This document shows positions 9,958 to 58,302 of a DNA stretch of 64,000 nucleotides, in pieces. The stretch lies in sequence record OR670491; one strand, given 5' to 3'. Positions within the stretch are counted from its first letter, which is position 1; each line of letters begins with the position of its first letter. Under the pieces are notes generated by a model. It was not told the origin of the DNA. It was given only the letters and a program-made list of their open reading frames with translations, and did no database searches. The DNA is from Escherichia phage vB_EcoM_JNE01. The position numbers and the translations under genes are program-made.

Positions 9958-10920
9958 TTGAAAAAGCTAGATCTAAATGCAATTGCTGATGAAGTACTGG
10001 ATGAATGTTTTGCTAGTGAAGAAGTCAACGTATTAGAGGCAATTGATGCCGTTGAAGAAGAACATGATGACCACAAGTTCGAGAAGCCTAACACTGGTAT
10101 CAGTTTGACTCGTCCTAAAGGTGTAACGAATGAAATGCTCATCCAGGAAGTACGTGATGGCATTAACGTTGAAAAGAACATTGATCTTCTGGTACGTTAC
10201 AACTACCCAATGATTGTTAGTACTGCTCGTAAATGTACATGTTTCATCCCATTTGAAGATAAGATTTCATATGGTGTTGAAGGTTTAATGCGAGCGATTC
10301 ATACATTCGATCCTACCAAGAACGTTAAGTTCATTACCTATGCAACAACAACAGTGTATATGACAATCTATAACGAAAGTGCAGACGCTAACTACCTAGT
10401 GCACTTCCCACGTTATATGAGTGTTAACAACATTTATGTGAAACGTTGTGTAGAAGCGTACCAAAAGAAATATGGTAGGTTCCCAACTCCAGAGATGGTC
10501 GCTGAAGAGACTGGTATTGAGATTCAACACGTTAAGAATTGTCTAACCTACACCAATACTTATATGGCATTGGATATGAAATTGAGTACTGATTCAGAAA
10601 GTACCTTGTCTGACATTGTTACTACAGTTGATCCTGATTACAACTTAGGTGCAGAAACTATCAGTATCCCACTGGTACAAAGTATTGCAGATATGATGCA
10701 TAATCTATCTGAAAAAGACCGTGAGTTGATTGAACGTGTACATGGTATTGGTTCAGCACAAGAACCAGAAACGCTACGAGAAATCATTGAGAGCGGTTTT
10801 GAAGATGAGAAGGGTAAAGTCATTACTGCTCGTTCTTCCTTGCACCGTAAGTACTCTGACGCAATGGAACGCCTACGTAAGATGGTGAAGTCCAGAGGTT
10901 ATGAGTTCGAAGATTTTTAA
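9958..10920 (+). CDS. phage-encoded sigma-70 family RNA polymerase sigma factor
   Basis: Region-2-like segment GVEGLMRAIHTFDPTKNVKFITYATTTVYMTI...HFPRYM and a C-terminal region-4-like helix-turn-helix (SEKDRELIERVHGIG...TARSSLHRKYSDAMERLRK); putative TTG start 6 nt after AGGAG, alternative ATG at 10135. Confidence 0.7.
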   Translation: MKKLDLNAIADEVLDECFASEEVNVLEAIDAVEEEHDDHKFEKPNTGISLTRPKGVTNEMLIQEVRDGINVEKNIDLLVRYNYPMIVSTARKCTCFIPFEDKISYGVEGLMRAIHTFDPTKNVKFITYATTTVYMTIYNESADANYLVHFPRYMSVNNIYVKRCVEAYQKKYGRFPTPEMVAEETGIEIQHVKNCLTYTNTYMALDMKLSTDSESTLSDIVTTVDPDYNLGAETISIPLVQSIADMMHNLSEKDRELIERVHGIGSAQEPETLREIIESGFEDEKGKVITARSSLHRKYSDAMERLRKMVKSRGYEFEDF

Positions 10921-10927: not shown

Positions 10928-10956
10928 GGGTTGACTTCGGTCAACCCTTTTTTTAT
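10928..10956 (+). terminator. rho-independent terminator with UUCG loop
   Basis: GGGTTGAC-TTCG-GTCAACCC followed by T7. Confidence 0.7.
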
Positions 10957-11582
10957 GGGACAAATTCGTAAATGGTGATACAATGATCTATGCACAACCA
11001 CAATGACAGTACTTGTACTGATAATCTTCCCTAATTCACTTGAAAACGTAAAGGATAGATGAGCTTTTCATTGTAGCGAACAGCAAAAGAAACCCGTTAG
11101 ATGTGGGCATAGTTTGAACCCCTCACGGCAATGCGGCTGTATAAAGAACCACGTTAGGATGGCTGGTGGTTCCTCGATAGACATATAAGGATAACACCTT
11201 ACGAATTATCTAAGGGAGAGTTATCAGATTTTGTACAATATAGTTGCGTCCAAAATTTGAGTACTCACATTAAGTATTTGATTGCATAGATACTTAATGA
11301 AGATACACTATGTTTAAAAGTGTAGACCGTCATATGAAACTGAAGTAGAGAGAAACAGGATGATCCGCTTTCGTGCTCTTTAAGAGTAATCTTCAATGCA
11401 ATAGCTCTGATACCATCAGCGTCAAATTCCCCTCTGTGTGGGGGGGGAAGAAAAATCCCTTTCTCAAATCCCGTCAATATTATAAAGTCCTTGACAGTTA
11501 TTATACATTCGCGTAAGATACGTAGTATCAGAAGCGAACAGACATCTCGAAGAGATGGATGATTAACATTAAGGAACATCTA

Positions 11583-12071: not shown

Positions 12072-12359
12072 ATGTTTATTCCTAATAATTCTAAAATTGG
12101 AACACAAGTACAACTTCTAGAAGATGTAAGTACTTGCAGTGGTACTTTCACTAAAGGTCACATCTTAACTATCACAGGTGAAACCGAGCGTGGTTATGAT
12201 TTGGAAGATGCTGATGGTAATCGTATCTTAGAAGCAGGGTTTAGTCGTTTTGTTGAAGTGGATAGTACTGACCAGAAAGAAACAGAAGGTCATTGTTTTG
12301 ATTACCAAGAAGTCAACTCAAAATGTATCTGTGGTGAAATTTATAGTAAATGGGATTGA
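12072..12359 (+). CDS. hypothetical protein
   Basis: 95-aa ORF. Confidence 0.45.
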   Translation: MFIPNNSKIGTQVQLLEDVSTCSGTFTKGHILTITGETERGYDLEDADGNRILEAGFSRFVEVDSTDQKETEGHCFDYQEVNSKCICGEIYSKWD

Positions 12360-12383
12360 CATAGTATAGAAATACTATATAAT
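12356..12383 (+). promoter_or_regulatory. sigma70-type promoter
   Basis: TTGACA, 16-nt spacer, TATAAT, 74 nt upstream of the 12430 ATG. Confidence 0.55.
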
Positions 12384-12429
12384 GTTTATATCAAATGAAA
12401 TTCACTTTAACCAACGATAGGAAAATATT

Positions 12430-12708
12430 ATGTCTTTAACCAAAGAAGAACGTGACCTTATTGAAAAAGCAATCTGGTTTTATGCAAATGAAAGCCAGTG
12501 CAGTGATGAAGAAGCACGTGAACTGTGCAACCACCTTAGACAGAAACAAGAACTGAAAGTGTATCGTATACGTGCTGTGGATGATGGGGATCGTATTGTT
12601 CTAGCGGAAACAAAAGAAGAAGCAGAACAAATCTTCACTGATAATAACGAAAATCCACATTACATGGAAGAAGTCTGTGAAGTGAAAAAAGGTACTTATA
12701 TCGATTGA
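12430..12708 (+). CDS. hypothetical protein
   Basis: 92-aa ORF downstream of promoter. Confidence 0.45.
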   Translation: MSLTKEERDLIEKAIWFYANESQCSDEEARELCNHLRQKQELKVYRIRAVDDGDRIVLAETKEEAEQIFTDNNENPHYMEEVCEVKKGTYID

Positions 12709-12733
12709 CAGTACTGAATAATAGCAGTATAAT
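12705..12733 (+). promoter_or_regulatory. sigma70-type promoter
   Basis: TTGACA, 17-nt spacer (gtactgaataatagcag), TATAAT; about 90-nt leader containing an inverted repeat. Confidence 0.55.
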
Positions 12734-17826: not shown

Positions 17827-18018
17827 ATGTTGATTTATCAAGGTGATGGTATTCGTGTATTGCAGCATCCATTCCTTCAAGTCTTCGATGTACAGAAGTT
17901 TCAAGAAGGTGATGATCCAAGAACATATGGACGTAAACATGATTACTTCACAGTAAAGCAATGTACAAGTATTGAAGAAGTTCGTTCATTAGTGAAAGAA
18001 CTAGAAAATAATGGTTGA
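17827..18018 (+). CDS. hypothetical small protein
   Basis: 63-aa ORF; its stop lies inside the terminator hairpin. Confidence 0.35.
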   Translation: MLIYQGDGIRVLQHPFLQVFDVQKFQEGDDPRTYGRKHDYFTVKQCTSIEEVRSLVKELENNG

Positions 18019-18043
18019 CTTCGGTCAACCTTTTTTGTATACT
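18013..18043 (+). terminator. composite terminator-promoter element
   Basis: GGTTGAC-TTCG-GTCAACC-T6; the -35 TTGACT (18015-18020) sits in the hairpin, 17-nt spacer, TATACT (18038-18043). Confidence 0.6.
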
Positions 18044-20010: not shown

Positions 20011-20043
20011 GGGTTGACCGAAGTCAACCCTTTGTTGTATAGT
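20011..20043 (+). terminator. composite terminator-promoter element
   Basis: GGGTTGAC-CGAA-GTCAACCC, T-rich tail, TATAGT. Confidence 0.55.
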
Positions 20044-21564: not shown

Positions 21565-21571
21565 ACACTAA

Positions 21572-21636
21572 GGTTGACTTCGGTCAGCATTTTTTATTGA
21601 TTTAGTATTGACACTATTAAAAGAAATGAATATAAT
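21572..21636 (+). terminator. terminator hairpin followed by a sigma70-type promoter
   Basis: GGTTGAC-TTCG-GTCAGC-T6 (21572-21595); TTGACA (21608-21613), 17-nt spacer, TATAAT (21631-21636). Confidence 0.55.
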
Positions 21637-21981: not shown

Positions 21982-22068
21982 ATGTATTTATATATCGCAA
22001 TTTCAAGTATTGTCTTTGTTGTTATCGTTACTGGATGGTTTGGGTATCTAATGTTAAGTACAAAATAG
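21982..22068 (+). CDS. possible 28-aa hydrophobic micro-protein
   Basis: MYLYIAISSIVFVVIVTGWFGYLMLSTK preceded by AAGGAACAGG; not in track (under 60 aa). Confidence 0.25.
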   Translation: MYLYIAISSIVFVVIVTGWFGYLMLSTK

Positions 22069-22098
22069 GTTGACTTCGGTCAGCCTTTTCTTTATACT
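22068..22098 (+). terminator. composite terminator-promoter element
   Basis: GGTTGAC-TTCG-GTCAGCC-TTTTCTTT; -35 TTGACT, 17-nt spacer, TATACT. Confidence 0.55.
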
Positions 22099-22127: not shown

Positions 22128-23972
22128 ATGAAATCTATGGAGAGAAATCAAATGCCAGGTCAATTTACTGATAAAAATGGTGGTAATATGGCTGGTCACT
22201 CTGACCGTTGGAGTGATGCTAACCGCCGTAAGAATAGTTATCAAGCAGGACAAGGTTCACGTGGTTCACGTAATCAAGGGACAGGTTTAGCTGGTAAGGC
22301 AAACGCAGAAGCAGGTGAAGTTAAGAGTACTGAGAACATGACTGAGCTAGAAAAGCTACGTTATGTTAACTCATTAGGTCTTCTTAACGCAACACAGAAA
22401 CAACGCCTTGCTGATATGGAACGTGCTGAGAAAGAACAAGCAGTTCCTAAAGAAGAACCAAAACCAGAAGCTCCTAAAGCAGCTAACCCTGTTAAAGAGT
22501 TATCTGATAACTTAGGTAAGATCTTTGCTAACAAACCACAGTTGATTCAGGGTATTGTCAAAGCACTACAGGCAGTTCCTAAAGAAGAACTCAAAGGTAA
22601 AGCACAAGCTGTACTTGATGCAATGAAAGGTAATAAGAGCACTGAACCTACTGAAGTATTCAGTACTATCATGCGTGCACTGGAAGGTAAACAGAAATCC
22701 TTACCACAAAAGACCGATCAAAAACCAAGCAAACCTAGTGGAAGAATGTCTGAAGACGAATTCCGTGAAGTAAATGATTACTTAGGTGCTAAGTTTGTGA
22801 ACGATATTATCAATCAAGCTAAACAATATACAGACTTAGAGAAAGCACTGTACATTATTGATATGGCAATTGAAAATGTAGATGATGTAAATGATTCTCG
22901 TGCAGTTCGTATGTCAATGTCAAGTGCTGCTGATGACCTCACATCAATGGGATTAACGCTCAAGGATGAAGACGAAAATAATGATATTGAGTTTGATGAA
23001 CACTCACACGATGATGTTAATCTGGAAAGTATTCTTAAAACTTTTGATAGTATTGGCAAAGCAGACCGTGCTAATGCACAGCAAGTCAAGAATGTACTAG
23101 CTAAACTTGAAAACCGTTTAGAAGGTAAAGACGATAAGATTCAATTAGTACATGATGCTATCAAATCAGCATTAGATTCTTATGCACCTGGTGAGAAGTC
23201 TCGATTCATCACTGCTATGAATGCTGCATTCAATACTATGAAAAAGTATGAAGCTGAACATGGTGAGAAAGTATCAAAAGATGGTTACTTAGTTCGTGAT
23301 GATGAAGAAGGGGCAGTTGACCAGAAAGATGCTGAAACATCTCATGATGATTTACCTGATACTGTTGATATGGATGGTTACATTCATCGTCCTGAAATGG
23401 GAGAGTTTGGTTCTGACAAAGAAGGATTTGAACATGCAATGGCAGTGTACAAAGCTCTCGTGAACAATCCAGATTATGCCAACCGATTTGTAGATGAGTT
23501 TGATAGTGCATGGAACAACTACAAAGACAAAGGTTATGACTTCCCTGCTGAGGCAGCATTCTTTGAACTTGGTAAACTTTTAGCTAAACATGGAATTGAT
23601 GTAGGTTCTAAAGATGGTACTGATACTGATGGCATGGAAGCAGAATTGGCTAAAGATCGTGAAATGAACGACAACTCCATTCATGAACTCCAGAAGCTAA
23701 TGATGTGGATATCCGATATTGGTAAAAAAGCTGGTGCTGATAATAAGAGTATCAACAAAAACATTAGTTGGATTAAAAGTAATGTTGGTAAAAATGCTCG
23801 TAAACTACAAAAAGCATGGACTGATTTAGTAAATGGTGCTGATGATGTTGACATTGAATCACCAGAAGCATACGAATATGCATTAACTACTCTTGATAAT
23901 TCCTTTAAAGATTACGATAACGGTAACGTAACTCATTGGGAAAAGGATATCATGAACAAATACGGTAAATGA
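22128..23972 (+). CDS. large charged (Lys/Glu/Asp-rich) hypothetical protein
   Basis: 614-aa ORF; low-complexity charged N-terminus, no recognisable catalytic motif. Confidence 0.5.
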   Translation: MKSMERNQMPGQFTDKNGGNMAGHSDRWSDANRRKNSYQAGQGSRGSRNQGTGLAGKANAEAGEVKSTENMTELEKLRYVNSLGLLNATQKQRLADMERAEKEQAVPKEEPKPEAPKAANPVKELSDNLGKIFANKPQLIQGIVKALQAVPKEELKGKAQAVLDAMKGNKSTEPTEVFSTIMRALEGKQKSLPQKTDQKPSKPSGRMSEDEFREVNDYLGAKFVNDIINQAKQYTDLEKALYIIDMAIENVDDVNDSRAVRMSMSSAADDLTSMGLTLKDEDENNDIEFDEHSHDDVNLESILKTFDSIGKADRANAQQVKNVLAKLENRLEGKDDKIQLVHDAIKSALDSYAPGEKSRFITAMNAAFNTMKKYEAEHGEKVSKDGYLVRDDEEGAVDQKDAETSHDDLPDTVDMDGYIHRPEMGEFGSDKEGFEHAMAVYKALVNNPDYANRFVDEFDSAWNNYKDKGYDFPAEAAFFELGKLLAKHGIDVGSKDGTDTDGMEAELAKDREMNDNSIHELQKLMMWISDIGKKAGADNKSINKNISWIKSNVGKNARKLQKAWTDLVNGADDVDIESPEAYEYALTTLDNSFKDYDNGNVTHWEKDIMNKYGK

Positions 23973-23981: not shown

Positions 23982-24014
23982 GGGTTGACTTCGGTCAGCC
24001 CTTTTTGCTATAAT
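23982..24014 (+). terminator. composite terminator-promoter element
   Basis: GGGTTGAC-TTCG-GTCAGCCC-T5-gc-TATAAT (24009-24014). Confidence 0.65.
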
Positions 24015-24042: not shown

Positions 24043-24450
24043 ATGAAAAAGACTATTTTAAGCGTAATCGGTGCAGTACTGTTCATGGTAACTTCAGTTG
24101 CTTCTGCTGCAACAGTAGAAGAGATCTTTAATAACAACCTACCTACTCAAGAAGAGATGGGTATTAAGAAGTGTGACCTTTCCCGTTACATCATTTTGGG
24201 ATCACAACTGGTTCCTGATGGTAAGGTTAAAAATCGTGTTAATCTGGTTGAAGATGGTAACACCTTCAGTTTTGAATATGGCGTAGCACCAACCTCCGGT
24301 TCTATGGATAACGTTGATGAAAACACTGGTTCCACCTGGAGTACTAACAAAGGTGATGTGTTCCATCGTATGCGTGAAGGTGGTAAACTGAAATATGTTT
24401 ACGAAAGCCCATTCATCAAACGCGTGTATATTATGACCAACTGCCATTGA
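24043..24450 (+). CDS. hypothetical secreted protein
   Basis: Signal-peptide-like MKKTILSVIGAVLFMVTSVASA; AGAGGAAA upstream. Confidence 0.5.
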   Translation: MKKTILSVIGAVLFMVTSVASAATVEEIFNNNLPTQEEMGIKKCDLSRYIILGSQLVPDGKVKNRVNLVEDGNTFSFEYGVAPTSGSMDNVDENTGSTWSTNKGDVFHRMREGGKLKYVYESPFIKRVYIMTNCH

Positions 24451-28596: not shown

Positions 28597-28602
28597 AAGG
28601 TA

Positions 28603-28631
28603 TTGACACAGTTCCCATTTAACAGTATTAT
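28603..28631 (+). promoter_or_regulatory. sigma70-type promoter
   Basis: TTGACA, 17-nt spacer, TATTAT. Confidence 0.45.
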
Positions 28632-28661
28632 GTATGTACACCAACTAATGAGGAATCTGAA

Positions 28662-29021
28662 ATGGCATCTTTAACTGAAATCACTGAACTTAATCCACTG
28701 GCAATTAGTACTGTTCAACGCACCAAGACGTTTTACTTCCGTCCAGCAGAAGGTTGGAAGCGTGGCGTGAATGGTGATTATCGTGAACTGGAAGATAATC
28801 TCGTGGGACGTGTTAATTCAGAACTTAATGTTTATGAAGGTGTTAAGGTTGTACGTTCACATTCTCGTTATTTTGAATACTACATTGAGTCTTCATCAGT
28901 GAATGAAAACAGTTCATTTTCTGTTGACAATACTGATACACTGCGTAATGCAGTATCTATTCTATGTAACATTGCAGAAGAGATGGGATTAACTATCGTA
29001 ACGATTGGTGAGTTAGCATGA
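28662..29021 (+). CDS. hypothetical protein
   Basis: 119-aa ORF, GAGGAA upstream. Confidence 0.45.
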   Translation: MASLTEITELNPLAISTVQRTKTFYFRPAEGWKRGVNGDYRELEDNLVGRVNSELNVYEGVKVVRSHSRYFEYYIESSSVNENSSFSVDNTDTLRNAVSILCNIAEEMGLTIVTIGELA

Positions 29022-29098
29022 TTAAAACTTTTATTCTTACAATGGTATTTGGTTCTTATGGTGCTGGTGTGCACCAGTAACTAAGAAATAAAAAAAGG

Positions 29099-29127
29099 TT
29101 GACAGTAGTCATCCCTTTCTATATAAT
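29099..29127 (+). promoter_or_regulatory. sigma70-type promoter
   Basis: TTGACA, 17-nt spacer, TATAAT; preceded by an A-run. Confidence 0.5.
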
Positions 29128-29158
29128 TAATACATCTTAAGCGAACGAGGATTTACAA

Positions 29159-29575
29159 ATGAATGCAACTCTGAATGGTAAAAATATCAACGTAGCTACT
29201 ATTGCTGCAATTCTGCTAAACAATCGTGAAGTAACTATTGACTTACCACTTACAACTAAAACTGGTATTCTCATTACACGAAATGAATCACACTTCGTTG
29301 GTTACAAAAAGCAAGATGTTATTTCCGTTTGTTTTTATGAATCAGACGGCATCGACGACGAAGTAACTAGTACTGAATACTTCAATACCGACATGATTGA
29401 ATCAGCATCTAAAGCTGCACTTGAGCGTCATGCAAGTGAAGATCCAACTGAAGCATCCAACTTCAGTGTTTCATTTGAAAACACTTTCATCAAAATTGAT
29501 GAAAATGTTATTGATTTTGAAATGGCTGATATCAGTCCGATGGATCTCAATGGCCTTCCAACTGTTAAAGGATAA
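29159..29575 (+). CDS. hypothetical protein
   Basis: 138-aa ORF. Confidence 0.45.
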   Translation: MNATLNGKNINVATIAAILLNNREVTIDLPLTTKTGILITRNESHFVGYKKQDVISVCFYESDGIDDEVTSTEYFNTDMIESASKAALERHASEDPTEASNFSVSFENTFIKIDENVIDFEMADISPMDLNGLPTVKG

Positions 29576-29580
29576 TACAA

Positions 29581-30000
29581 ATGAAATGTCCAATCTGTGA
29601 AAAACAATTGAATGTTGGATCAATTCCTTTCCTTTGGATGGATCGCTACGGTGATAAATGCGTTGCCAGGACTGAATGCTGTGGTCATGCAGTAACAATG
29701 CGTAAGGTTTCAACCTATACAGCAGACCCGTATGTTGGTGAGCGAAGCGAAGATGATTGGGGTACAGAGTTTACTCCTTTGAAGTCTAAAATCCAAGCAC
29801 AAGTAAACGATGAACTTTATGATTCAGTACTGATGCACTTGAAGAACAACGAACTGAGAGAAGCACTTGATGTTATTCGTTCTATTAAGAACCCTTTAAC
29901 AGCAGCTTGGGTGACTCATCAAGTACTGGAATATTTGGATACACCTAGCCAAAAACAAACGCGTAACTGGCTCATTAACGCATTGTATAGTGGAGTATAA
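29581..30000 (+). CDS. hypothetical protein with Cys-rich N-terminus
   Basis: CPIC...C...CC-H arrangement in the first 45 residues. Confidence 0.45.
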   Translation: MKCPICEKQLNVGSIPFLWMDRYGDKCVARTECCGHAVTMRKVSTYTADPYVGERSEDDWGTEFTPLKSKIQAQVNDELYDSVLMHLKNNELREALDVIRSIKNPLTAAWVTHQVLEYLDTPSQKQTRNWLINALYSGV

Positions 30001-30046
30001 GAGTAGTTGTAATCGAAGCTGTAATTTATATGTTGAGGTAGTTCAA

Positions 30047-30139
30047 ATGAAAGTTATGTTTGTATACAACGAATTTGAAGAATGCAAAGGTTGTGGTTTG
30101 CCGAACTATCTTTGTTCCTGTCATGGTGAGTATTTCTGA
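30047..30139 (+). CDS. possible 30-aa Cys-rich micro-protein
   Basis: MKVMFVYNEFEECKGCGLPNYLCSCHGEYF after GAGG; not in track. Confidence 0.25.
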   Translation: MKVMFVYNEFEECKGCGLPNYLCSCHGEYF

Positions 30140-30145
30140 AATAAA

Positions 30146-30177
30146 GGGTTGACTTCGGTCAGCCCTTTTTGCTATAA
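30146..30177 (+). terminator. composite terminator-promoter element
   Basis: GGGTTGAC-TTCG-GTCAGCCC-T5-gc-TATAAT (30172-30177); 30 nt upstream of the denV ATG. Confidence 0.65.
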
Positions 30178-30206
30178 TACTTTCATCAAGACGAGAGGAT
30201 GAAAAC

Positions 30207-30722
30207 ATGACACGCATTAACTTAGTACACGTTAAAGAACTTGCTGACCAACATCTGATGGCTGAATACCGTGAACTCCCACGCGTGTTTGGTGCTGTAC
30301 AAAAACATGTTCAAGCACGTAAACGTGTCCGTGATTTCAAAATTAACAGTACTTACCTGTTAGGTTCAGGTCATGTAACATTCTTCTACGACAAGTTACT
30401 TTACTTACAGAAGCGACATATTGATATTGTCAACGAATGTTTGCGTCGTGGTATGAAGATTCAAAACACTGAAGTAAACGATATCAGTGGGTTCCCTGCT
30501 GAGTTTTGTAATGATTACGTACCATCGGAGTCAGAGATTAAAACATCGCGTGAGCGTTTGATTGAGAAGCTCCAGATGAAGCCTAAGTGGTATAAATTTA
30601 CTGATGTTGAATGTCCACAGTACGTTAAAGATATGCAGAACGTAAGTAGTAAGATCGAATCTAGTACTGATATGTTCGACGAAATTGAAGAACAAATCAA
30701 AGATGAAATGAATAATTATTAA
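30207..30722 (+). CDS. denV: pyrimidine-dimer DNA glycosylase / AP lyase (T4 endonuclease V homologue)
   Basis: N-terminal ~100 aa closely match my recollection of T4 endonuclease V ([45 protein letters not shown]); catalytic Thr2 and Glu23 are present; acidic C-terminal extension. Confidence 0.85.
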
Positions 30723-30760
30723 AGGAAAGGATTGACTTCGGTCACACAAAGGAACATAAC

Positions 30761-30955
30761 ATGTTATTACTATATTCAAAGCGTTTCTGGATTTCTTTCA
30801 TTGTACTTTCGCTAATCGGCTTCGGTGTGAGTATAATCTTTTCGTGGGATGAATTGGGTACATGGTATTATGAAGTTCCGTGGTACATGAAGATAGCTCC
30901 TTGTTACGCGGCATTGTTCGTGTCCTTCCTTATTGTTGTCTTCAGTGAGGATTAG
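30761..30955 (+). CDS. hypothetical small membrane protein
   Basis: 64-aa hydrophobic ORF. Confidence 0.4.
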   Translation: MLLLYSKRFWISFIVLSLIGFGVSIIFSWDELGTWYYEVPWYMKIAPCYAALFVSFLIVVFSED

Positions 30956-31036: not shown

Positions 31037-31068
31037 GGGTTGACTTCTGTCAGCCCTTTTTGCTATAA
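31037..31068 (+). terminator. composite terminator-promoter element
   Basis: GGGTTGAC-TTCT-GTCAGCCC-T5-gc-TATAAT. Confidence 0.6.
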
Positions 31069-31095
31069 TTATTTCATTAACTAAAGAGGTAATAC

Positions 31096-31329
31096 ATGAA
31101 ACTATCTTTTATACGTTTAGCAGAATTCTTCGGTACTGATATCATTACTTTACAACAAATTGCAGACAATACTTCATTAAGTACACAAGAAGTACTTGAC
31201 TTGGATGTAATTAAGTGCGATAATACTTCCATCGATTACAAAGAAGGTCTTGTCGAAAAAGATAAGATTCAGGCTAAGATTAATGGTGCTGGACGGGTTC
31301 AGTACTGGAAAGGAGTTTTAAGTAAATGA
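31096..31329 (+). CDS. hypothetical protein
   Basis: 77-aa ORF, AGAGG upstream. Confidence 0.4.
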   Translation: MKLSFIRLAEFFGTDIITLQQIADNTSLSTQEVLDLDVIKCDNTSIDYKEGLVEKDKIQAKINGAGRVQYWKGVLSK

Positions 31330-32750
31330 AAATTTATATTGATAAATTTGGAACGACTTATGAATATTATGATTATACACATTATAATTCATATATACAA
31401 AAAAATCATAACCAAATGTCACCTTATTTGCATTATGAAGATTTAATGGAACTATTCTCTAAAAATGTAAATTCTATTAAATTTATTGGTTTTAAAGATG
31501 CAACATGGAAAAGTTCACATACGCATGTGTATTTTGAATATGATAATATGGTATATGAACATTCAATATCAAATATCAAAACAAAATTCGCTGATCATAG
31601 ACATAAACCAGGTAGAATATGTAGAACCTTGGAACAAATTATAAATGAGTCCATTTATATATTTAAAAAATATGATAAATTTAATTTTCATAGCAGTGCA
31701 TCATTTAATGGAGCACGAACTATAATCAATTATACAATTGAAGGACGTGAAAGAATATTTTCTATATCATTCAATTCATTAATAAAAGATTTTAAAGGGG
31801 GAAGCCCATGTTATTCATATGAAGAAGTAGAAAATATATCTATAAAAAAATTAAATGAACATAATTTGAGATTTATCTCAATTAGTAAATTTAATGGTGT
31901 GTTTAGTTGTATTGAATATGAACAACCAACACAGAAAGGAAAAAAATATGTTGATTTTAATATATTAATCTATAATGAATGGAAAGGTAATCTACCGAAT
32001 ATAACTAATGAAGAGGTGAATAATCGAATTTCAGAAAAAATGAAAAAACTAAATATCAATGAATATGAAATTGTAGAATATAACAGTACTAGGAGCATGG
32101 TTGAATATACAGTTGATGATATTTCATATACAACTAGTTACGATAAGATTATGCATCCAACTTGGAAAGGTAATCCAAGATATACAAAAGAAAGAATAAT
32201 AAAATTGTCGAAAAAATATTGCAAGGGTAAAAAATTTCAATTTAATAAAATAATTGGTAATGTTAAAGGAATTAATACTATCATTGAATTAGAACTTGAA
32301 AATGGTATGTTTATATATCCAAAATTTATACAATTAAAAGGAGGTTCTGACTTTAATACATCCACTGATGGTAAGATTTTAACAGAAATAATTTATCCTT
32401 TGTTCGACAATTATATCACACAAAAACGTTTTGAAAATTGTAGAAATCCTGAAACTGGATACTTGTTGCCATATGATTTGTATGTTCCAGAATTTAATTT
32501 ATTATTAGAAAAAGATGGAGTGCAACATTACAATCCAACAGCATATTTTAATAAAACATATGAATCATATTTGAAATTGAGAGAGAGAGATGAATTTAAA
32601 AACAAATATGCCATATCAAATGGTTATAATTTCATGCGAATAGCAGATTATGAAGATCATGAAAAAATATTGAAATCTTTCCTTAAACTCATTGAAGAGA
32701 ATCCAGGAAAGCAAATCGTGCAGATCTATGGTGAAGTACAAATTATCTAA
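31326..32750 (+). CDS. AT-rich ORF with C-terminal Vsr/DUF559-like PD-(D/E)xK nuclease motif; candidate homing-type endonuclease
   Basis: 474 aa, rich in Asn/Lys/Ile/Tyr, visibly lower G+C than its neighbours; C-terminal ...PETGYLLPYDLYVPEFNLLLEKDGVQHY fits the D...(I/L)E-x-DG-xx-H pattern of Vsr-like nucleases. Confidence 0.45.
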   Translation: MKIYIDKFGTTYEYYDYTHYNSYIQKNHNQMSPYLHYEDLMELFSKNVNSIKFIGFKDATWKSSHTHVYFEYDNMVYEHSISNIKTKFADHRHKPGRICRTLEQIINESIYIFKKYDKFNFHSSASFNGARTIINYTIEGRERIFSISFNSLIKDFKGGSPCYSYEEVENISIKKLNEHNLRFISISKFNGVFSCIEYEQPTQKGKKYVDFNILIYNEWKGNLPNITNEEVNNRISEKMKKLNINEYEIVEYNSTRSMVEYTVDDISYTTSYDKIMHPTWKGNPRYTKERIIKLSKKYCKGKKFQFNKIIGNVKGINTIIELELENGMFIYPKFIQLKGGSDFNTSTDGKILTEIIYPLFDNYITQKRFENCRNPETGYLLPYDLYVPEFNLLLEKDGVQHYNPTAYFNKTYESYLKLRERDEFKNKYAISNGYNFMRIADYEDHEKILKSFLKLIEENPGKQIVQIYGEVQII

Positions 32751-32757: not shown

Positions 32758-32789
32758 GGGTTGACACTAGTCAGCCCTTTTTGCTATAA
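32758..32789 (+). terminator. composite terminator-promoter element
   Basis: GGGTTGAC-ACTA-GTCAGCCC-T5-gc-TATAAT. Confidence 0.6.
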
Positions 32790-32818
32790 TCATTTCATCA
32801 ACTCAAGAGGATAAAGAC

Positions 32819-33592
32819 ATGACCCGTACAGAGAAAGCAATCCAAATCGAAAAGAACTTCAACAGCATGATGGCAGCTTTGGAATGTTTACTTGATACCC
32901 AAGCTAATTCAATCAATTCCCTGATTGTATCTGGTAAAGGTGGTGTTGGTAAAACTTACAACGTTGACCAGCGTTTACAGAAAGCTGATGATAACTTTGA
33001 AATCGACTACAAAAAGATCAGCGGTAAAGTAACCACTATGGGTTTGTACGAAGCACTGTATCGTTCACGTCATGCCGCTTCAGTACTGTTACTTGATGAC
33101 GTTGATATCTTCAGTGATGAAACTAACATTGACTTGCTCAAAGCAGTGTTGGACACGTCGGAGAAGCGGGTTGTATCTTATGCAACTTCTGGTAAGTACC
33201 TGGAGCAGCAGGGTATTCCTAAGCAGTTTGAATTCCGTGGGAAGGTAATCTTCCTGACGAACAAAAACCTGTCACAGATTGCTAAAGGTAAAAGCAGTTT
33301 AGCACCACACATTGATGCACTGATTACTCGTAGTATCTTTGTTGACCTACAACTGTTCACCAACGAAGAAGTCATGATTCACATTGAGAACATCATGAAC
33401 AAGACTAACATTCTTGAGAACAATGGTGTTAATAAAAATGGTTGTAAAGCAATCCTGAACTGGATGCTGAACAACGAAGAAAACCTGCGTTCACCTTCAC
33501 TGCGTATGCCGTGCCTGATTGCTGGTTTGTACAACAAATTCCCGTATGATTGGGAATCAATGGCAGAAAACATGTTCCTGGAAAAGAACTAA
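32819..33592 (+). CDS. P-loop NTPase
   Basis: Walker A SGKGGVGKT and Walker B-like VLLLDDVD. Confidence 0.55.
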   Translation: MTRTEKAIQIEKNFNSMMAALECLLDTQANSINSLIVSGKGGVGKTYNVDQRLQKADDNFEIDYKKISGKVTTMGLYEALYRSRHAASVLLLDDVDIFSDETNIDLLKAVLDTSEKRVVSYATSGKYLEQQGIPKQFEFRGKVIFLTNKNLSQIAKGKSSLAPHIDALITRSIFVDLQLFTNEEVMIHIENIMNKTNILENNGVNKNGCKAILNWMLNNEENLRSPSLRMPCLIAGLYNKFPYDWESMAENMFLEKN

Positions 33593-37668: not shown

Positions 37669-37696
37669 AAAGCCAGTACAAAGTACTGGCTTTATT
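37669..37696. terminator. bidirectional rho-independent terminator
   Basis: GCCAGTAC-AAA-GTACTGGC flanked by an A-run and a T-run, between convergent genes. Confidence 0.65.
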
Positions 37697-38902
37697 TTAT
37701 ATACCACGACTGGGTATTTGATATAATTGGAATTTAGTGTAGTAATCAGAAACTGTTGTCCCGGCTGCTTGTGGGATATAGCCACTCAAATACACATCCC
37801 CTTGATTATCCATATACACTGTTGTACATTCACTTGAACAGAATAACTCGGTGTTAGATACTTTAGGAGCATCAACTGGTGTTACAAATGTAGTACTTGA
37901 TGTTGTATTACCGCGACCGAGCTTACCATACGTGTTTATACCACACATATAAAGTGAATCGGCAGTTTTAACCGTAAGCCCACCATATGTTAATGAATTT
38001 GATTTCATTTCCATATCATCTGATATTGGTAGAGTGGAGATAGTGGATAATACTGTCCAAGAATTAGCGGATGAACCATTACCCAAGTTACCATCGGACT
38101 GAATCCCACTTGCACGAACTGTATATGTATTATTCGTGTTGTGTTTATATACAACCCATGATGCACTCCCACCGAGTTCATAATGTATAACAGTATTGTT
38201 GGCGAATGCACCCATTTGTGTCCATACTCTAATGTTAGTTGCATTATTACTTATACCAAGCGAACCCCATGTGTTTTGACCAGTGACCCAAAGTGTTTTA
38301 TCAATTTTCTGCACAATCACTGCACTTGAACCTGTTTTAACACTATCAACATTCGTATTAATTGACGTAAAAGTTGATAATCTAGTGGTTGTGTTATTAC
38401 CAAAATATCCCTGTGTATTCGTCCCCATTCCATATAGCGTACCATTTTCAAGTAAAACAAAAATACCCTCACCTACAAGTTGAATGTCCTTAATTTGGGA
38501 CAATTGTGTAGCATTGAATACTGATGTAAAATATGAAGTACAATCAGTATAAGTACTGGCAGTACTTAAACCTGCACCAATAGCTTTACCAACCCCACTG
38601 TAATAAAATTTATTATCTTCAGTTTGGATTAAATTAAAAGTACCTTGGGCTGTTCTGAAACGTTTTACATTTTGGTATATTAAAGTCCATTCTTTTACTT
38701 TCGCATTATGTACACCATTCCCGAATCCATAGTTTTGTGAAGTAGTTCCACCTATACCCATTAAGTCTCCATTTTTATATAATAGTAAGAGTGCTGTTGC
38801 TGGAATTACTGACGCACTATAACCATTGTACATAAAGATTTCTTTCACTTCAGGAACTTTCATTTTATTAGCGTATTTAACCATTCTTGCAAAAGGTAAC
38901 AT
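37697..38902 (-). CDS. RCC1-like beta-propeller repeat protein, paralog 1
   Basis: 401 aa; N-terminus MLPFARMVKYANK; Gly/Asn/Thr/Ser-rich repeats typical of RCC1-like blades. Confidence 0.6.
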   Translation of the reverse strand: MLPFARMVKYANKMKVPEVKEIFMYNGYSASVIPATALLLLYKNGDLMGIGGTTSQNYGFGNGVHNAKVKEWTLIYQNVKRFRTAQGTFNLIQTEDNKFYYSGVGKAIGAGLSTASTYTDCTSYFTSVFNATQLSQIKDIQLVGEGIFVLLENGTLYGMGTNTQGYFGNNTTTRLSTFTSINTNVDSVKTGSSAVIVQKIDKTLWVTGQNTWGSLGISNNATNIRVWTQMGAFANNTVIHYELGGSASWVVYKHNTNNTYTVRASGIQSDGNLGNGSSANSWTVLSTISTLPISDDMEMKSNSLTYGGLTVKTADSLYMCGINTYGKLGRGNTTSSTTFVTPVDAPKVSNTELFCSSECTTVYMDNQGDVYLSGYIPQAAGTTVSDYYTKFQLYQIPSRGI

Positions 38903-53735: not shown

Positions 53736-54202
53736 GTTGTACATAGGGTGAGGGAACGGCGGCAACTGTTCCTTAATCTCAGTATCATGTCGTGAGACAT
53801 TACGCAAGTTATATCCTCCTGTGCATAGTGCTGGTGGTTATCTCTTGAACCTCATTTTTTCTCGTGAACTAAACAGTACTGATATTAACAGAATGGTAGC
53901 AGTACTGATATTAATCTAATGCATTATGCCACCAGCTTGTGCTGGTGGATTCCCTCTAACAGTATTCAGTACTACATGATGGTCTTCATCCTCCTGGGGT
54001 AACATAGTGAAGGTTATGATGGCAGTACTGAATACTCCAAACTCAAGATGGATTAAGGGTGTAGTACTGACGGATTTTGGGTGTAGTTACCCTGGATGGA
54101 TTTTGGACGTAGATATGTCTAGCCCTCCAGAAGTCTGGAAGTAAAGATGGCTATCCATCTAGACGGCTAAACGGCTAGATTTCTGGATGGCTGGACGTTT
54201 GG

Positions 54203-54234
54203 ACGGCTAAACGGCTAAACGGCTAAACGGCTAA
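54203..54234. repeat. iteron-like tandem repeat (ACGGCTAA x4)
   Basis: Four perfect 8-bp units with degenerate copies and GGATGG/GGACG motifs on both sides. Confidence 0.6.
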
Positions 54235-54878
54235 ACGTCTGGATGTATGGATGGCTAAATCAAAATTTTATTTTGTTTTTTCCAATAGTTCCCCTACCGC
54301 GTGGGGATAGTTTCCCCGCAGTATCTGGTGTTAGATTTTTCTGAATCTGGAATCATTATCTTATAAACTGGGGGCAATGTCAACGGCCTGGACGGATATT
54401 TTTAAAAATTTTTTCAGTACTGAATTTTGGGCGTAACTATGCACCCGGTGGGCTTGAGTCTTTCTCGACTTGATGGAACTATTATACAGTACTGAAAAAA
54501 TAAAGCAATACCCTGGAAGCAAAAAAGTTTTAATTAATTTGCTTGCTATCCTGGGCCGGACTATGGTACTATATTTCAGTACTGAGAAAGTGCGTTTACC
54601 TGCTAGGGTGCGGGAGTGTATCCTTTTTTTATATCTTGAATTTTGGACGGATCTTCCCACCCCCTGGGGTATCCGCTTTCTCGCGTCTATGTAGTAATTA
54701 TACGCTTTTTCAGGATCAAGTCAATACCTAAAAACAAAATAATTGAAAATAATTTAACGCGTTTAAACGGCCCGTAACGCCCTGGAATGATTAGAATGGT
54801 GCAAATGTATAGCTTAGGTGTATTAATGCGTTAGAATGCGTCTGAGGCCGTTTTATGGGGTGTAGTAGTGATTTGGTT

Positions 54879-55046: not shown

Positions 55047-55079
55047 GAAAACTATTTTAAAAGTATTTGTAGAAAGTAC

Positions 55080-55139
55080 TTGCACAGTACTGATAAAAGC
55101 GTATAATGTTTTACATCGAGAGCGGGAACTCTTCCCGCT
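55080..55139 (+). promoter_or_regulatory. promoter / 5' stem-loop cassette
   Basis: TTGCAC, 16-nt spacer, TATAAT (55102-55107), gttttacatc, hairpin AGCGGGAA-ctc-TTCCCGCT (55121-55139). Confidence 0.6.
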
Positions 55140-55162
55140 ACACTTTAAGAGAGATTAATACG

Positions 55163-55525
55163 ATGGCGACTCAAATCACTAAAATCATTGCTAACCTGGT
55201 TAACTTCCGCGACGATATGAAAGATCTTCCGGCGGCAACGGTTAAAACTCACATTGACGCATACCGCGAACTGATTAAAATGCTGCCGCTTAAGCGTGAA
55301 CAATACGCCGCCACCGTGATGCTTGATGCGATGATCCATAAGATGATCGCCAGTGATTTAACGATGGCTTATCAGTATATGGGTGAATTGTTCGCGGTGT
55401 ATAGTAAACCAGTACCAGGAATGGAAAGTACAGAAGTATTACACGGTTTAAATTTAAAACAAGATGCATGGGATAATATGCCTCGTTTCCTGGTATGGGC
55501 TGACAGTGGCAAAATTTACGAATAA
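55163..55525 (+). CDS. hypothetical protein
   Basis: Internal ATG (frame +57) of track ORF 55106, downstream of the cassette hairpin. Confidence 0.5.
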   Translation: MATQITKIIANLVNFRDDMKDLPAATVKTHIDAYRELIKMLPLKREQYAATVMLDAMIHKMIASDLTMAYQYMGELFAVYSKPVPGMESTEVLHGLNLKQDAWDNMPRFLVWADSGKIYE

Positions 55526-55538
55526 GTTAAAAATTAGT

Positions 55539-55597
55539 TTGACAGTACTGAATAAAAGCGTATAATGTTTTACATCAGGTGGGGAATAGTTCCCCAC
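55539..55597 (+). promoter_or_regulatory. promoter / 5' stem-loop cassette
   Basis: TTGACA-N16-TATAAT; hairpin GTGGGGAA-tag-TTCCCCAC. Confidence 0.6.
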
Positions 55598-55617
55598 TAT
55601 ATAAGAGGATTAAAAAA

Positions 55618-55857
55618 ATGGCTAAATCAAAAATGTTCTTAGGTCACAAAAATAAAACTCATTGGAATGTAAGCCTTTGGATTAATAACGATGAGGGATT
55701 GTATCGGTTGGCCCAGGACTTTATTAACGATAGCACTAATCGCAATGATGCGGCCCGTCATATGATGTTATTTTTAGAACAGACTGGACAAGATAAAACA
55801 CCGGACGGATTCAAATATAGCACTACTGCGATCCGTGCGGCAATGGTAGGAATGTAA
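55618..55857 (+). CDS. hypothetical protein (paralog of 57659..57898)
   Basis: 79 aa; shared GHKNKTHWNVSLWINN ... TPDGFKYSTTAIRAAMVGM. Confidence 0.5.
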   Translation: MAKSKMFLGHKNKTHWNVSLWINNDEGLYRLAQDFINDSTNRNDAARHMMLFLEQTGQDKTPDGFKYSTTAIRAAMVGM

Positions 55858-55943
55858 TAGAATATATTTAAAGTACTATCATTTTTTTGCGATAGTACTT
55901 TATAATAGTGTTTTATTCATACACCAACGATAAGGGCAACAGC

Positions 55944-56210
55944 ATGAATATTAAGTATTTTGCGACGCGTGAACAAGCTCGGATCGCCGCTCGCCAGGAC
56001 GGGGCAACGTTTAAAGATATGGGCGTACAATCGGAACGTGGTAAACGTTGGGCCATTGTAAAGCGTAGTACCGCCAGATCATTACAGTACTGGTTAGCGG
56101 CCTTAAAAAGTCCCGATAGTGTATCGCGTCGAGTGGTAGAAATAAAGCTCGACCGAAAGGGCAACCGCGTGACCGTGTACCGTACTAAAAAGATAGCAGT
56201 ACTTGAATAA
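55944..56210 (+). CDS. hypothetical basic protein
   Basis: Internal ATG (frame +36) of track ORF 55908. Confidence 0.45.
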   Translation: MNIKYFATREQARIAARQDGATFKDMGVQSERGKRWAIVKRSTARSLQYWLAALKSPDSVSRRVVEIKLDRKGNRVTVYRTKKIAVLE

Positions 56211-56217
56211 AAAGTAC

Positions 56218-56276
56218 TTGCAAACTATGTTTAATGGCGTATAATGTTTTACATCGAGAGCGGGAACTCTTCCCGC
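56218..56276 (+). promoter_or_regulatory. promoter / 5' stem-loop cassette
   Basis: TTGCAA-N16-TATAAT; hairpin GCGGGAA-ctc-TTCCCGC. Confidence 0.6.
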
Positions 56277-56297
56277 CTATAACCTGGAGTAATAAAA

Positions 56298-56528
56298 ATG
56301 ACTAATATGTATATGACTGAAGTTAAAACCGTAAAAGATACTACCACGAATAAAACTACTTACTTACAGCGGATCTGCGGTGTATGGCAACGTATCAGCA
56401 AATCAAAGTACTTTAAATTAACATCATATGCAAATCGTTCGGATTCATTCAGTACTGAAATAAAAGGTAATAAAGTACACCAATACGGCACTTATTATTA
56501 TTACAGCCTGGACGCGATTGCAGTATAA
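56298..56528 (+). CDS. hypothetical protein
   Basis: 76-aa ORF with GGAG RBS. Confidence 0.45.
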   Translation: MTNMYMTEVKTVKDTTTNKTTYLQRICGVWQRISKSKYFKLTSYANRSDSFSTEIKGNKVHQYGTYYYYSLDAIAV

Positions 56529-56778
56529 GCAGTTTACAAATCTTTACAATTGCCGGTATTGACTTATTTTGTCAGTACTGGCATAATGTATTCATTGGCA
56601 GATAAGCCGTAGCCCATAGGGTGCGGGAGTGTATCTATAGAAAAATTAGTTTAGTATAGTTACAATTGTGCACCCGGTGGGTTAGCTGTTGTCATGGGGT
56701 ATATTATGCCAGTACTTGATAATTCTGTCAATACTTTTTTTTTACTATTCAGTACTGAAAACTATTTTTAAAAAGTAC

Positions 56779-56896
56779 TTGCAAACTATGTTTAAAGGCG
56801 TATAATGTTTTACATCAGGACGGGGAACGAAATAAGTAACTTCCCGTTAAGTAGCCCAGGAGTAAGGCACACGAAAAACTCCCCTGATAAAATAGT
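56779..56896 (+). promoter_or_regulatory. orphan promoter with ~90-nt structured leader (candidate small RNA)
   Basis: TTGCAA-N16-TATAAT (to 56806), then tacatcaggacggggaac...acgaaaaactcccctga with no ORF; a second promoter follows. Confidence 0.45.
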
Positions 56897-56924
56897 TTGA
56901 CAAATGTTTTTAAAAGCGTATAAT
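56897..56924 (+). promoter_or_regulatory. sigma70-type promoter
   Basis: TTGACA-N16-TATAAT, 32 nt upstream of the 56957 ATG. Confidence 0.55.
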
Positions 56925-56956
56925 ACTTACATCAACTACTGAATGAGGGTTACAAA

Positions 56957-57568
56957 ATGAAAACTATCACTACTACTACTTTCGTTATGGATTTTTCTGA
57001 ATTGAACGCAGAACAACAAACGTCAGCTATCGAACTGGTTCGGGATCGTGAGCGTTCATGTGAGGATAATTTCTTTGCTGAGGGCGTTATCGAGTACTAT
57101 AAAGAAACAGTACTACCAGAATACGGCATAGATGAAGCTGAATTGCAATACAGTGGTTTTTGGTCGCAAGGTGACGGTGCATCAATCAGTACTGACAGCG
57201 TGGACGCAGTGAAGTTTTTACGCAAGATTAAAGCGTTAACGAAATATCGTTCTATCCGTCACTTGTTGAATGAAGATGATTTGGCAATGAGTGTAGAACG
57301 TTCACACTCTCGCTACGCACACGAAAACACGGTAAGCGGGTACATTGAATCGGCTTACACTGATTTAACCGCAAAACAAGAAACGTTAGTTAATGAGCTT
57401 GAGGAACTACTCACTGATACTATTCGTGAATTGTCCCGCAAGTTGTACCGTGATTTAGAGAATGCATATGAGGATCAATTCACTACTGAAAACATTACGG
57501 CACTGATTGAGGGTAACGAATATCAATTCAATGTTATTGATGGCGTAGTGGAATCAATCGAATATTAA
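56957..57568 (+). CDS. hypothetical acidic protein
   Basis: 203-aa ORF with GAGGGT RBS. Confidence 0.5.
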   Translation: MKTITTTTFVMDFSELNAEQQTSAIELVRDRERSCEDNFFAEGVIEYYKETVLPEYGIDEAELQYSGFWSQGDGASISTDSVDAVKFLRKIKALTKYRSIRHLLNEDDLAMSVERSHSRYAHENTVSGYIESAYTDLTAKQETLVNELEELLTDTIRELSRKLYRDLENAYEDQFTTENITALIEGNEYQFNVIDGVVESIEY

Positions 57569-57580
57569 TTTAAAAAGTAC

Positions 57581-57640
57581 TTGCAAACTAAGTTTAAAAG
57601 CGTATAATACTTTATATCGAGGCGGGGAGTGGTTCCCCGC
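57581..57640 (+). promoter_or_regulatory. promoter / 5' stem-loop cassette
   Basis: TTGCAA-N16-TATAAT; hairpin GCGGGGA-gtggt-TCCCCGC. Confidence 0.6.
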
Positions 57641-57658
57641 TCAAACGAGGATTTAAAA

Positions 57659-57898: not shown

Positions 57899-57955
57899 TA
57901 TTCAGTACTGAGATAATGGCGGGTAATAGTTCCCGCCTTTACTGAGGGTTATCTA

Positions 57956-58216: not shown

Positions 58217-58224
58217 AAAAGTAC

Positions 58225-58283: not shown

Positions 58284-58302
58284 TGGTAATGAGGAAAATA
58301 AA

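Follow-up and report, generated by a model that had tools for sequence, protein, structure and literature searches.

Composite terminator-promoter hairpins in the early region of a RaK2/121Q-like jumbo coliphage: probable PeSL-type stop-restart cassettes

Near position 30,146 of the DNA analyzed here, a short hairpin sequence with a TTCG loop, a run of T and a TATAAT hexamer lie between the stop codon of one small gene and the start codon of the next. Does this sequence end the transcript of the upstream gene, start that of the downstream gene, or do both with the same bases? Throughout, the window means the whole stretch of 64,000 nucleotides that was analyzed. We consider it probable (roughly 80%) that the element is a composite stop-restart cassette of the promoter-early stem-loop (PeSL) type, from the early, hyperplastic part of the genome of a RaK2/121Q-like jumbo coliphage. 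At the level of sequence, the dual reading as a terminator and a sigma-70 promoter is supported.

Source of the DNA

Megablast searches with the 28-34 kb and 9.5-34.4 kb portions of the window against GenBank phages matched RaK2/121Q-like jumbo coliphages only. These relatives (Turkey5, SHEFM2K, 121Q, PBECO4, G17 and others) have genomes of 320-386 kb and align at 85-97% identity, with a patchy coverage of 24-73%. Judged by sequence similarity, the window is DNA of a RaK2/121Q-like (Asteriusvirus-like) jumbo coliphage, and the patchy coverage marks the region as a mosaic, hyperplastic part of such a genome. The early region is crowded with small ORFs on the + strand. Within the window, 11 of the 12 copies of the element lie among these ORFs, between 10.9 and 32.8 kb, a zone of which the relatives cover just 24-73%. 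An Rfam search at gathering thresholds and a tRNA search, both over the whole window, returned no matches. Two genes serve as landmarks:

9958-10920, + strand: gene for a phage sigma-70-family factor, from a domain search
30207-30722, + strand: denV (endonuclease V), with a Pyr_excise domain

Behind the sigma-factor gene and the hairpin that follows it, about 600 nt (10950-11560) contain no convincing ORF; the gap is likewise unannotated in Turkey5, 121Q and vB_Ec-M-J.

Anatomy of the element at 30146

The focal sequence reads AAATAAA-GGGTTGAC-TTCG-GTCAGCCC-TTTTT-GC-TATAAT and contains the following features.

30137-30139, + strand: TGA stop codon of the upstream ORF 29990-30139
30139-30145, + strand: A-rich tract AAATAAA directly after the TGA, able to pair with the U-run
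30146-30165, + strand: hairpin, from folding and the covariance model
30146-30153, + strand: 5' arm, GGGTTGAC
30149-30154, + strand: putative -35, TTGACT, within the 5' arm and the first base of the loop
30154-30157, + strand: loop, TTCG
30158-30165, + strand: 3' arm, GTCAGCCC
30166-30170, + strand: T5 run
30166-30172, + strand: T5 and GC, the putative U-tract of the terminator and 3' part of the promoter spacer
30170-30172, + strand: TGn of a putative extended -10 (T30170, G30171, C30172)
30173-30178, + strand: putative -10, TATAAT
30185, + strand: predicted +1, an A preceded by C, 7 nt after the -10
30193-30199, + strand: Shine-Dalgarno sequence GAGAGGA in the leader
30207, + strand: ATG of denV, at the end of the leader segment 30185-30209

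The earlier note on this DNA had closed the element at 30177, one base short of the end of the -10 hexamer. The hairpin scores 55.7 bits with the covariance model. Its stem includes a U·G wobble (T30149 with G30162), and the folding energy of the sense RNA is -16.6 kcal/mol (z -5.8). For the antisense RNA the value is only -11.9 kcal/mol because the U·G pair turns into a C·A mismatch. The tract after the hairpin is UUUUUGCU, with U in six of its eight positions. As a promoter, the same bases offer TTGACT, an 18-nt spacer and TATAAT, which amounts to 11 of 12 consensus matches with the TG present, and the leader that follows is 22 nt long (ATCAAGACGAGAGGATGAAAAC). The A-rich tract sits at about -45 to -39 relative to the predicted start, which is where a proximal UP-element subsite is expected, so that it may act as such a subsite as well.

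Copies across the window

We searched the window with a covariance model built from the hairpin and T-run alone, without any -10, and with filters off. The model returned 10 strong copies on the + strand (10928, 18012, 21571, 22067, 23982, 29096, 30146, 31037, 32758 and 63040), the strand-ambiguous copy 20011 and the remnant 30729, with no further matches in the window. This gives 11 good copies and one remnant, all intergenic and all on the strand of the genes. A search with the 20-mer hairpin allowing up to three mismatches found nine matches, against 0.00 expected in shuffled sequence.

The earlier note had described a unit that recurs at least ten times, with a degenerate copy near 30731. 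A hairpin of the GGGTTGAC-TTCG-GTCAGCCC type is indeed present at every coordinate that it named, some of them off by 1, and the degenerate copy was found at 30729 in a decayed state. The count of ten holds for the hairpin and fails for the complete unit: the exact 33-mer GGGTTGACTTCGGTCAGCCCTTTTTGCTATAAT occurs just twice (23982 and 30146), and four times when the loop is left free, which adds 31037 (TTCT) and 32758 (ACTA). Its list, in which every position is real, had also missed the copy at 29096. The copies other than the focal one are as follows.

10928-10954, + strand: terminator-only copy, GGGTTGACTTCGGTCAACCC and T7, 8 nt after the sigma-factor gene
18012-18043, + strand: composite copy with a palindromic stem (GTCAACC), T6 and TATACT at 17 nt
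20011-20043, + strand: flipped copy with a perfectly palindromic stem, then TTTGTTG and TATAGT
21571-21597, + strand: terminator-only copy with a weak stem (-7.5 kcal/mol) and T6
22067-22098, + strand: composite copy, AGGTTGACTTCGGTCAGCCT then TTTCTT, TATACT at 17 nt, upstream of the 614-aa ORF 22128-23972
23982-24014, + strand: full copy identical to the focal 33-mer, between ORFs 22128-23972 and 24043-24450, fold -18.8 kcal/mol
29096-29127, + strand: composite copy, AGGTTGAC-AGTA-GTCATCCC then TTTC, one stem mismatch, upstream of ORF 29159-29575
30729-30746, + strand: degenerate remnant, GGATTGACTTCGGTCACA, between denV and ORF 30761-30955
31037-31069, + strand: full copy with loop TTCT, between ORFs 30761-30955 and 31096-31329
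32758-32790, + strand: full copy with loop ACTA and -35 TTGACA, after the homing-endonuclease-like ORF 31326-32750 and before ORF 32819-33592
63040-63071, + strand: composite copy, TGGTTGAC-TCCG-GTCAGCCA, TTTT and G-C-TATTAT, with a 17-nt spacer and TGn

Upstream stop codons lie 6-95 nt before the stem or within it; at copy 18012, for instance, the stop codon of ORF 17827-18018 falls inside TTGAC, and the next ORF begins at 18074. An A-tract precedes the GGG of the stem, and a conserved leader (CATTTCATCAACTCAAGAGGA) reaches the ATG. Eight window copies carry a sigma-70-like promoter, as TTGACT with an 18-nt spacer or TTGACN with a 17-nt spacer, and counting the doubtful copy 20011 there are nine. 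TGn precedes the -10 in the form TGCTATAAT at 23982, 30146, 31037 and 32758, and as TGCTATTAT at 63040. Copy 29096 (35.8 bits, fold -7.8 kcal/mol) has a putative promoter that matches the consensus at 12 of 12 positions (TTGACA-17-TATAAT). After copy 63040 there is no ORF directly downstream; instead, a TAGCCCACAGGGTGC motif and a second promoter follow.

The composite function is not universal, because two copies lack an adjacent -10 and a third has an implausibly short leader. Neither 10928 nor 21571 has a -10 at 17-18 nt. Both are followed, some 20-40 nt further on, by a separate promoter-like sequence: 10957-10984 in the first case and a perfect TTGACA-17-TATAAT (21608-21636) in the second. 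At 20011 the loop is CGAA on the + strand and TTCG on the - strand, and the covariance scores of the two strands are similar. Promoter use at this copy is doubtful since a mere 12 nt separate the TATAGT hexamer (18-nt spacer) from the ATG. To judge from its sequence, the flipped loop looks like the product of a palindrome-mediated inversion. The hairpin at 20011-20030 is identical in Turkey5. The remnant at 30729 (12.4 bits) has lost the T-run, the -10 and any stable fold (z 0.12).

The hairpin as a sense-strand RNA

Folding energies of the full copies range from -16.6 to -18.8 kcal/mol (z about -5). Eight window copies fold at -10.6 to -18.8 kcal/mol and are followed by a T-run, and copies 21571 and 29096 reach about -7.5 to -7.8 kcal/mol. 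When we aligned 122 distinct copies from the relatives of the window and from other phages, 99.6% of the stem cells were paired in the sense RNA. The base opposite the first T of TTGAC forms a U·G pair in 105 copies and a U-A pair in 15. In the same alignment, the outer stem pair switched from G-C to A-U 17 times, and the double change from A-U to G-C occurred three times. Nearly all of the stem variation, including the exchange of U·G and U-A opposite both T's of TTGAC, keeps the sense RNA paired, and changes of this kind would be C·A mismatches in an antisense RNA. Among 132 copies, 59 have a TTCG loop and 85 a loop of the UNCG or GNRA type.

These patterns bear on whether the palindrome matters as DNA. 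TTGAC-N4-GTCA(A) could be an operator for a dimeric phage or host regulator, with the RNA hairpin irrelevant; a near-perfect palindrome over the -35 occupies the classic position of a repressor site, three of the window copies are perfectly symmetric, and such a role could coexist with the stop-restart cassette. In the window and four relatives, however, a G replaces the symmetric A in about 74% of the copies, and orthologous copies switch between A and G. This asymmetric G preserves the RNA pairing and breaks the DNA symmetry, and for this reason we downgraded the operator reading. Moreover, stable RNA tetraloops are enriched, although they would be meaningless in a DNA spacer, a T-run always follows, and no candidate binding protein was identified. 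We consider an operator as the primary function highly improbable. The U·G wobble could itself be under selection, as it keeps the RNA hairpin while destroying both an antisense -35 and the perfect DNA palindrome.

A stable hairpin need not terminate transcription. C(UUCG)G hairpins stabilize RNA 3' ends in the intercistronic regions of T4, and an element that guards the 3' ends of processed long early transcripts, without termination, would fit the shortness of the U-tract here (U5 followed by GC). Other evidence points to termination. ARNold scores the hairpins as terminators, including the one in the GenBank record of G17 (-17.0), and supplementary Table S8 of the CBB paper independently lists such hairpins as terminators Torf39, 515, 518 and 520. 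In addition, the drop in lacZ expression caused by a PeSL stem-loop was close to that caused by rrnB T1. As stabilization is compatible with termination and does not exclude it, we regard a function in RNA stability or processing alone as extremely unlikely.

The reading as an intrinsic terminator, which the earlier note had proposed, agrees with a stable hairpin that is specific to the sense strand and followed by a U-run. Intrinsic terminators have a U-rich tract of about 7-8 nt, whereas the tract here is short and may pair with the A-tract, so that termination may be partial. A simple terminator scan omitted the four full copies because it prolonged the stem into the flanking A/T tracts and left too few T; for this reason we did not count these misses against termination.

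The same bases as a probable promoter

To assess the coupling between the hairpin and a -10, we used 132 copies from many phages, oriented by the wobble base. The -10 counts are independent of how the copies were found, since neither the covariance model nor the search patterns contained a -10. A -10-like hexamer stands exactly 17-18 nt after TTGACN in 125 of the 132 phage copies (95%), and 91 of these 125 have TGn. On the antisense strand, the hexamer appeared in 19 of 132 (14%) and TGn in none. As a second control we took identical hairpins from bacterial and archaeal genomes, with one genome for each of 185,579 species; among the 46 occurrences, seven had the hexamer (15%). Fisher tests gave very small p-values, which overstate the significance because common descent and gene conversion link the copies.

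Of 122 copies, 103 have an A at the position 7 nt after the -10, and in 115 a pyrimidine precedes this position. By sequence this is a canonical start-site context. In seven window copies, an ATG lies 27-32 nt after the -10 with a Shine-Dalgarno sequence in between. Many perfect TTGACA-16/17-TATAAT promoters without a hairpin lie on the same strand of the window, which suggests that early promoters of the host sigma-70 type are the norm in the region.

One alternative is that the element is an ordinary intrinsic terminator, with TTGAC and TATAAT present by coincidence or belonging to unrelated promoters. It draws on the bacterial copies, where the same hairpin usually carries a long T-run and reads as a plain terminator, and on the published annotations, which give a terminator alone; copies 10928 and 21571 fit it as they stand. 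It does not account for the hexamer at 17-18 nt, mostly with TGn, in 95% of the phage copies against about 15% in both controls, nor for the pyrimidine/A start context 7 nt downstream of the -10. Furthermore, the stem is nearly invariant and spells out the -35 consensus, a uniformity not seen among the other CBB terminators, whose stems are diverse. A terminator without promoter function is accordingly very unlikely in our judgement. The proposal that TTGAC(T) in the stem is a -35 gains support from the same 125 copies, at the level of sequence. The further claim that the element couples a stop to a restart stands for the composite copies, for which the sequence-level predictions hold, and falls for 10928 and 21571.

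How the cassette would work

We infer that the composite copies both terminate and initiate transcription, on the grounds described above: the layout of the element, its preference for the sense strand, the fixed distance between hairpin and -10, and the conservation across phages. A literature search for transcript 5' or 3' ends of this phage or of any Asteriusvirus returned nothing relevant.

In the RNA of the upstream gene, a hairpin of 8-11 bp would form, in most cases with the very stable C(UUCG)G as its cap and with U4-5 behind it. It would serve as intrinsic terminator or attenuator and would probably protect the 3' end as well. At the focal copy, an RNA polymerase arriving from upstream would transcribe the hairpin and the U-run and release its transcript at a predicted position of about 30170-30174. 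In the DNA, these bases would make up a promoter for the host sigma-70, with its -35 (TTGACt) in the 5' arm, a spacer of 17-18 bp that consists of loop, 3' arm and T-run, and an extended -10 (TGnTATAAT) that the last T of the run and the following G complete. Sigma-70 holoenzyme would then restart at the conserved A (about 30185), some 12-14 nt past the 3' ends of the upstream transcripts. The new transcript would lack the hairpin and would thus not terminate itself, and it would begin with a conserved leader of about 22 nt that includes the Shine-Dalgarno sequence.

Fusing the stop and the start in this way would make each small gene or gene pair an insulated unit. A cassette of about 35-60 nt that is repeated almost identically would also provide homology for the gain, loss and exchange of the genes that it flanks.

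Recombination and mosaicism

Two indels have junctions within repeated promoter sequence. Compared to Turkey5, the window has an indel at about 12384-12733 that comprises a promoter and ORF 12430-12708; the Turkey5 sequence crosses over from the left to the right flank of the window inside the TATAATGTTTATATCAAA that the two promoters share. Compared to Turkey5, 121Q and SHEFM2K, the window has an insertion at 28598-30142 that carries four ORFs and element 29096. This insertion ends exactly at element 30146, and its flanks read AAAGG(G)TTGAC. The gene order around denV varies among the relatives, with elements at the borders of the cassettes. Copy 32758 has the same leader as its paralog 23982 and a different one from its orthologs, which suggests exchange between copies.

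These individual examples are no more than suggestive of a role of the elements in recombination. In 20 pairwise comparisons of five phages, 22% of the 162 alignment-block ends fell in elements, against 3.4% under a uniform null and 27% under an intergenic-only null. As there is no enrichment over the intergenic null, we do not regard element-mediated recombination as statistically supported. Another possible source of the mosaicism is the homing endonuclease genes that these cassettes contain, which probably contribute to it.

Might the element then be primarily a recombination or mobility device, such as a selfish MITE- or REP-like repeat or a site-specific exchange site, with its regulatory motifs secondary? 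Near-identical copies at cassette borders, indels that end at copies, the paralog-like 5' UTR of copy 32758 and the mini-circles demonstrated for PeSLs would all suit such a device. Against it, the copies are all on the gene strand and hold a fixed place behind one gene's stop codon and ahead of the following ATG, they have no terminal repeats or target duplications, their enrichment at junctions does not exceed that of intergenic DNA in general, and what is conserved in them is precisely what defines a promoter and a terminator. We therefore give this explanation very little credence. We rejected its MITE- or REP-like variant for the fixed orientation and position of the copies, and no target duplications were seen at the indel junctions.

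Two cassettes deserve description in their own right. The one-gene cassette at 12356-12733, which has two flanking promoters, is absent from Turkey5 (L006 10830-10940); the crossover lies in 18 nt of shared -10 and leader sequence, and the spacer of the left promoter contains an inverted repeat, ATAGTAT..ATACTAT. The cassette between elements 31037 and 32758 (31096-32750) consists of a small ORF and a large gene that differs in each relative: a 474-aa homing-endonuclease-like protein, other HNH or homing endonucleases, or a DUF4379 protein.

Other repeats in the window

A second early-promoter cassette is present in 14 copies at 55066-63692 (for instance 58211-58305 and 63162-63256). It consists of AAAGTACTTGCAA-N17-(G)TATAAT-nnTTACATC, a G/C hairpin in the leader (GGGGAGAAATGGTTCTCCCC or GGGGAAACGGTTTCCCC), a Shine-Dalgarno sequence and an ATG, and it resembles the PeSL subclass whose stem-loop lies downstream of the -10.

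A third family, of terminators on the minus strand at 37669-46638, has the form GCCAGTACT-N3-4-AGTACTGGC followed by a T-run. Its members stand behind most of nine tandem minus-strand genes of about 360-450 aa (37697-48965), and two of the three genes tested from this array contain RCC1 repeats. Many further regulatory repeats in the window contain AGTACT/CAGTACTG too.

The motif TAGCCCAYAGGGTGC(G/A) occurs at 54597-54625, 56610-56638 and 63095-63123, about 25-30 nt after a promoter and with no ORF directly behind it. It has no Rfam match and could be the place where a small non-coding RNA begins. In RaK2 and in jumbo phages known from uncultured material, the same motif, CTAACCC-N3-4-GGGTGC, trails composite elements. 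Finally, a degenerate 8-nt tandem repeat (GGCTAAAC / GGATGGCT) fills 54130-54256, an ORF-poor stretch.

Comparison with known systems

PeSLs were described in the T4-type phages RB49/phi1 (Arbiol et al. 2010, PMC2839356) and also reported for T4/PST and KVP40/nt-1 (Comeau et al. 2014, PMC4122927). In lacZ fusions, those of RB49/phi1 had both terminator and promoter activity, and mini-circle formation between neighbouring copies was reported for these phages only (PMC2839356). One described subclass has a stem-loop that overlaps the -35 (PMC2839356). The window elements share with PeSLs the combination of a sigma-70 early promoter, here putative, with a predicted terminator stem-loop, the intergenic position in ORFan-rich hyperplastic regions, the A/T-rich upstream part with a stop codon, the Shine-Dalgarno sequence and ATG at the 3' end and the presence of many repeats; in individual examples they also adjoin cassette indels, as PeSLs do.

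The likeness extends to sequence in Vibrio phage nt-1, whose PeSL-rich region at 51-56 kb has spacers such as AAAAGGGTTGC-TTCG-GCAGCCC-T6-G-T-TATTCT. Individual readings are AAAAGGGTTGC-TTCG-GCAGCCC-TTTTTTGT-TATTCT and AAAAGGGTTGCA-CTA-TGCAGCCC-TTTTTAG-TATTAT-ATCTACATCGAAACGAG. The -35 is in the 5' arm, the U·G wobble is at the same position and the leader is similar (ACATCGAAAC or ACATCAACT). This layout agrees with the published PeSL description, 'A3-4G3-loop-C3T3-4; TTGYVH-N17-TAWWAT' (Comeau et al., PMC4122927). There are also differences. The phage of the window is an Asteriusvirus-like jumbo phage of about 350 kb that the GenBank taxonomy lines do not assign to the Straboviridae. Its -35 is TTGAC, in contrast to TTGC(N) in nt-1 and the poly-G/C stems of RB49, and its -10 is the consensus extended TGnTATAAT. 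The reporter and mini-circle results belong to RB49/phi1, whereas the window copies are known from their sequence.

Similar copies are widespread among phages. KVP40 has at least six exact copies of GGGTTGAC-N4-GTCAGCCC, and a scan of IMG/VR for GGGTTGAC-N4-GTCAGCCCTTT found 100 distinct copies, in KVP40 (6), VH7D, the Aeromonas phages 65 and AS-zj and the Brochothrix phage A9 (2), as well as in RaK2, GAP32, CBB, 121Q, fHe-Yen9-04 and uncultured phages of about 350 kb. BLAST found related copies in 168 phage records. A common unit of about 60 nt (an A-tract, a GGGTTG(A)C hairpin with the -35, the U·G wobble, a T-run, TGnTATWAT and an AUC(G)AAAC leader) is present in both Straboviridae (KVP40/nt-1 and Aeromonas phage 65) and RaK2-like jumbo phages, the latter with hosts in at least six genera, and A9, a phage of a Gram-positive host, has two copies of it. 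It is possible, though in our view unlikely, that the cassette is one pan-myovirus plug-in module, exchanged horizontally together with the ORFans that it flanks, instead of many convergent inventions. The first 20 or so bases predicted to be transcribed after the -10 (ATCTACATCGAAACGA or CATTTCATCAACT) are nearly alike in the straboviral Vibrio phage nt-1 and the enterobacterial jumbo phages. The GAAACG core of the leader resembles the TGAAACG box, which has been reported as a divergent -35 in CBB and GAP32.

Two other kinds of system are comparable in part. The morons of lambdoid phages are, as here, autonomous gene cassettes with their own promoter and terminator. Their signals are separate, are not conserved repeats and are not thought to mediate exchange, in contrast to the fused and repeated signals of the window. 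According to a preprint (bioRxiv 10.64898/2026.02.12.705533), the class II terminators of T7 combine a terminator and a context-dependent E. coli promoter in one short sequence; as described there, they differ in that they terminate T7 RNA polymerase, are not intrinsic terminators of the hairpin type and do not form a repeated cassette.

Within the RaK2 group, the sources that we checked annotate identical hairpins (for instance GGGTTGACTTCGGTCAGCCCTTTTTGCTATAC) as terminators only, in the G17 record and in CBB Table S8, and the elements are missing from the CBB table of RpoD-like promoters. We did not find the sequence of the element printed in a relevant context in the main texts that we searched.

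If the stop-restart reading is right, PeSL-type cassettes are not confined to T4-type phages and would also organize the early regions of RaK2-like jumbo phages. This would improve the annotation of early transcription units in genomes of about 350 kb and would explain the tight modularity of ORFan regions, with one or two genes per unit. The cassette could also provide phage engineering with a compact natural insulator part, in which 33 bp would combine a terminator with a strong extended -10 promoter. The identity of stem and leader across families offers a handle on the movement or convergence of regulatory DNA in large virulent phages. By their sequence, the window elements are of the PeSL type and known in kind; what is new is the phage lineage, in which the sources that we checked had annotated them only as terminators.
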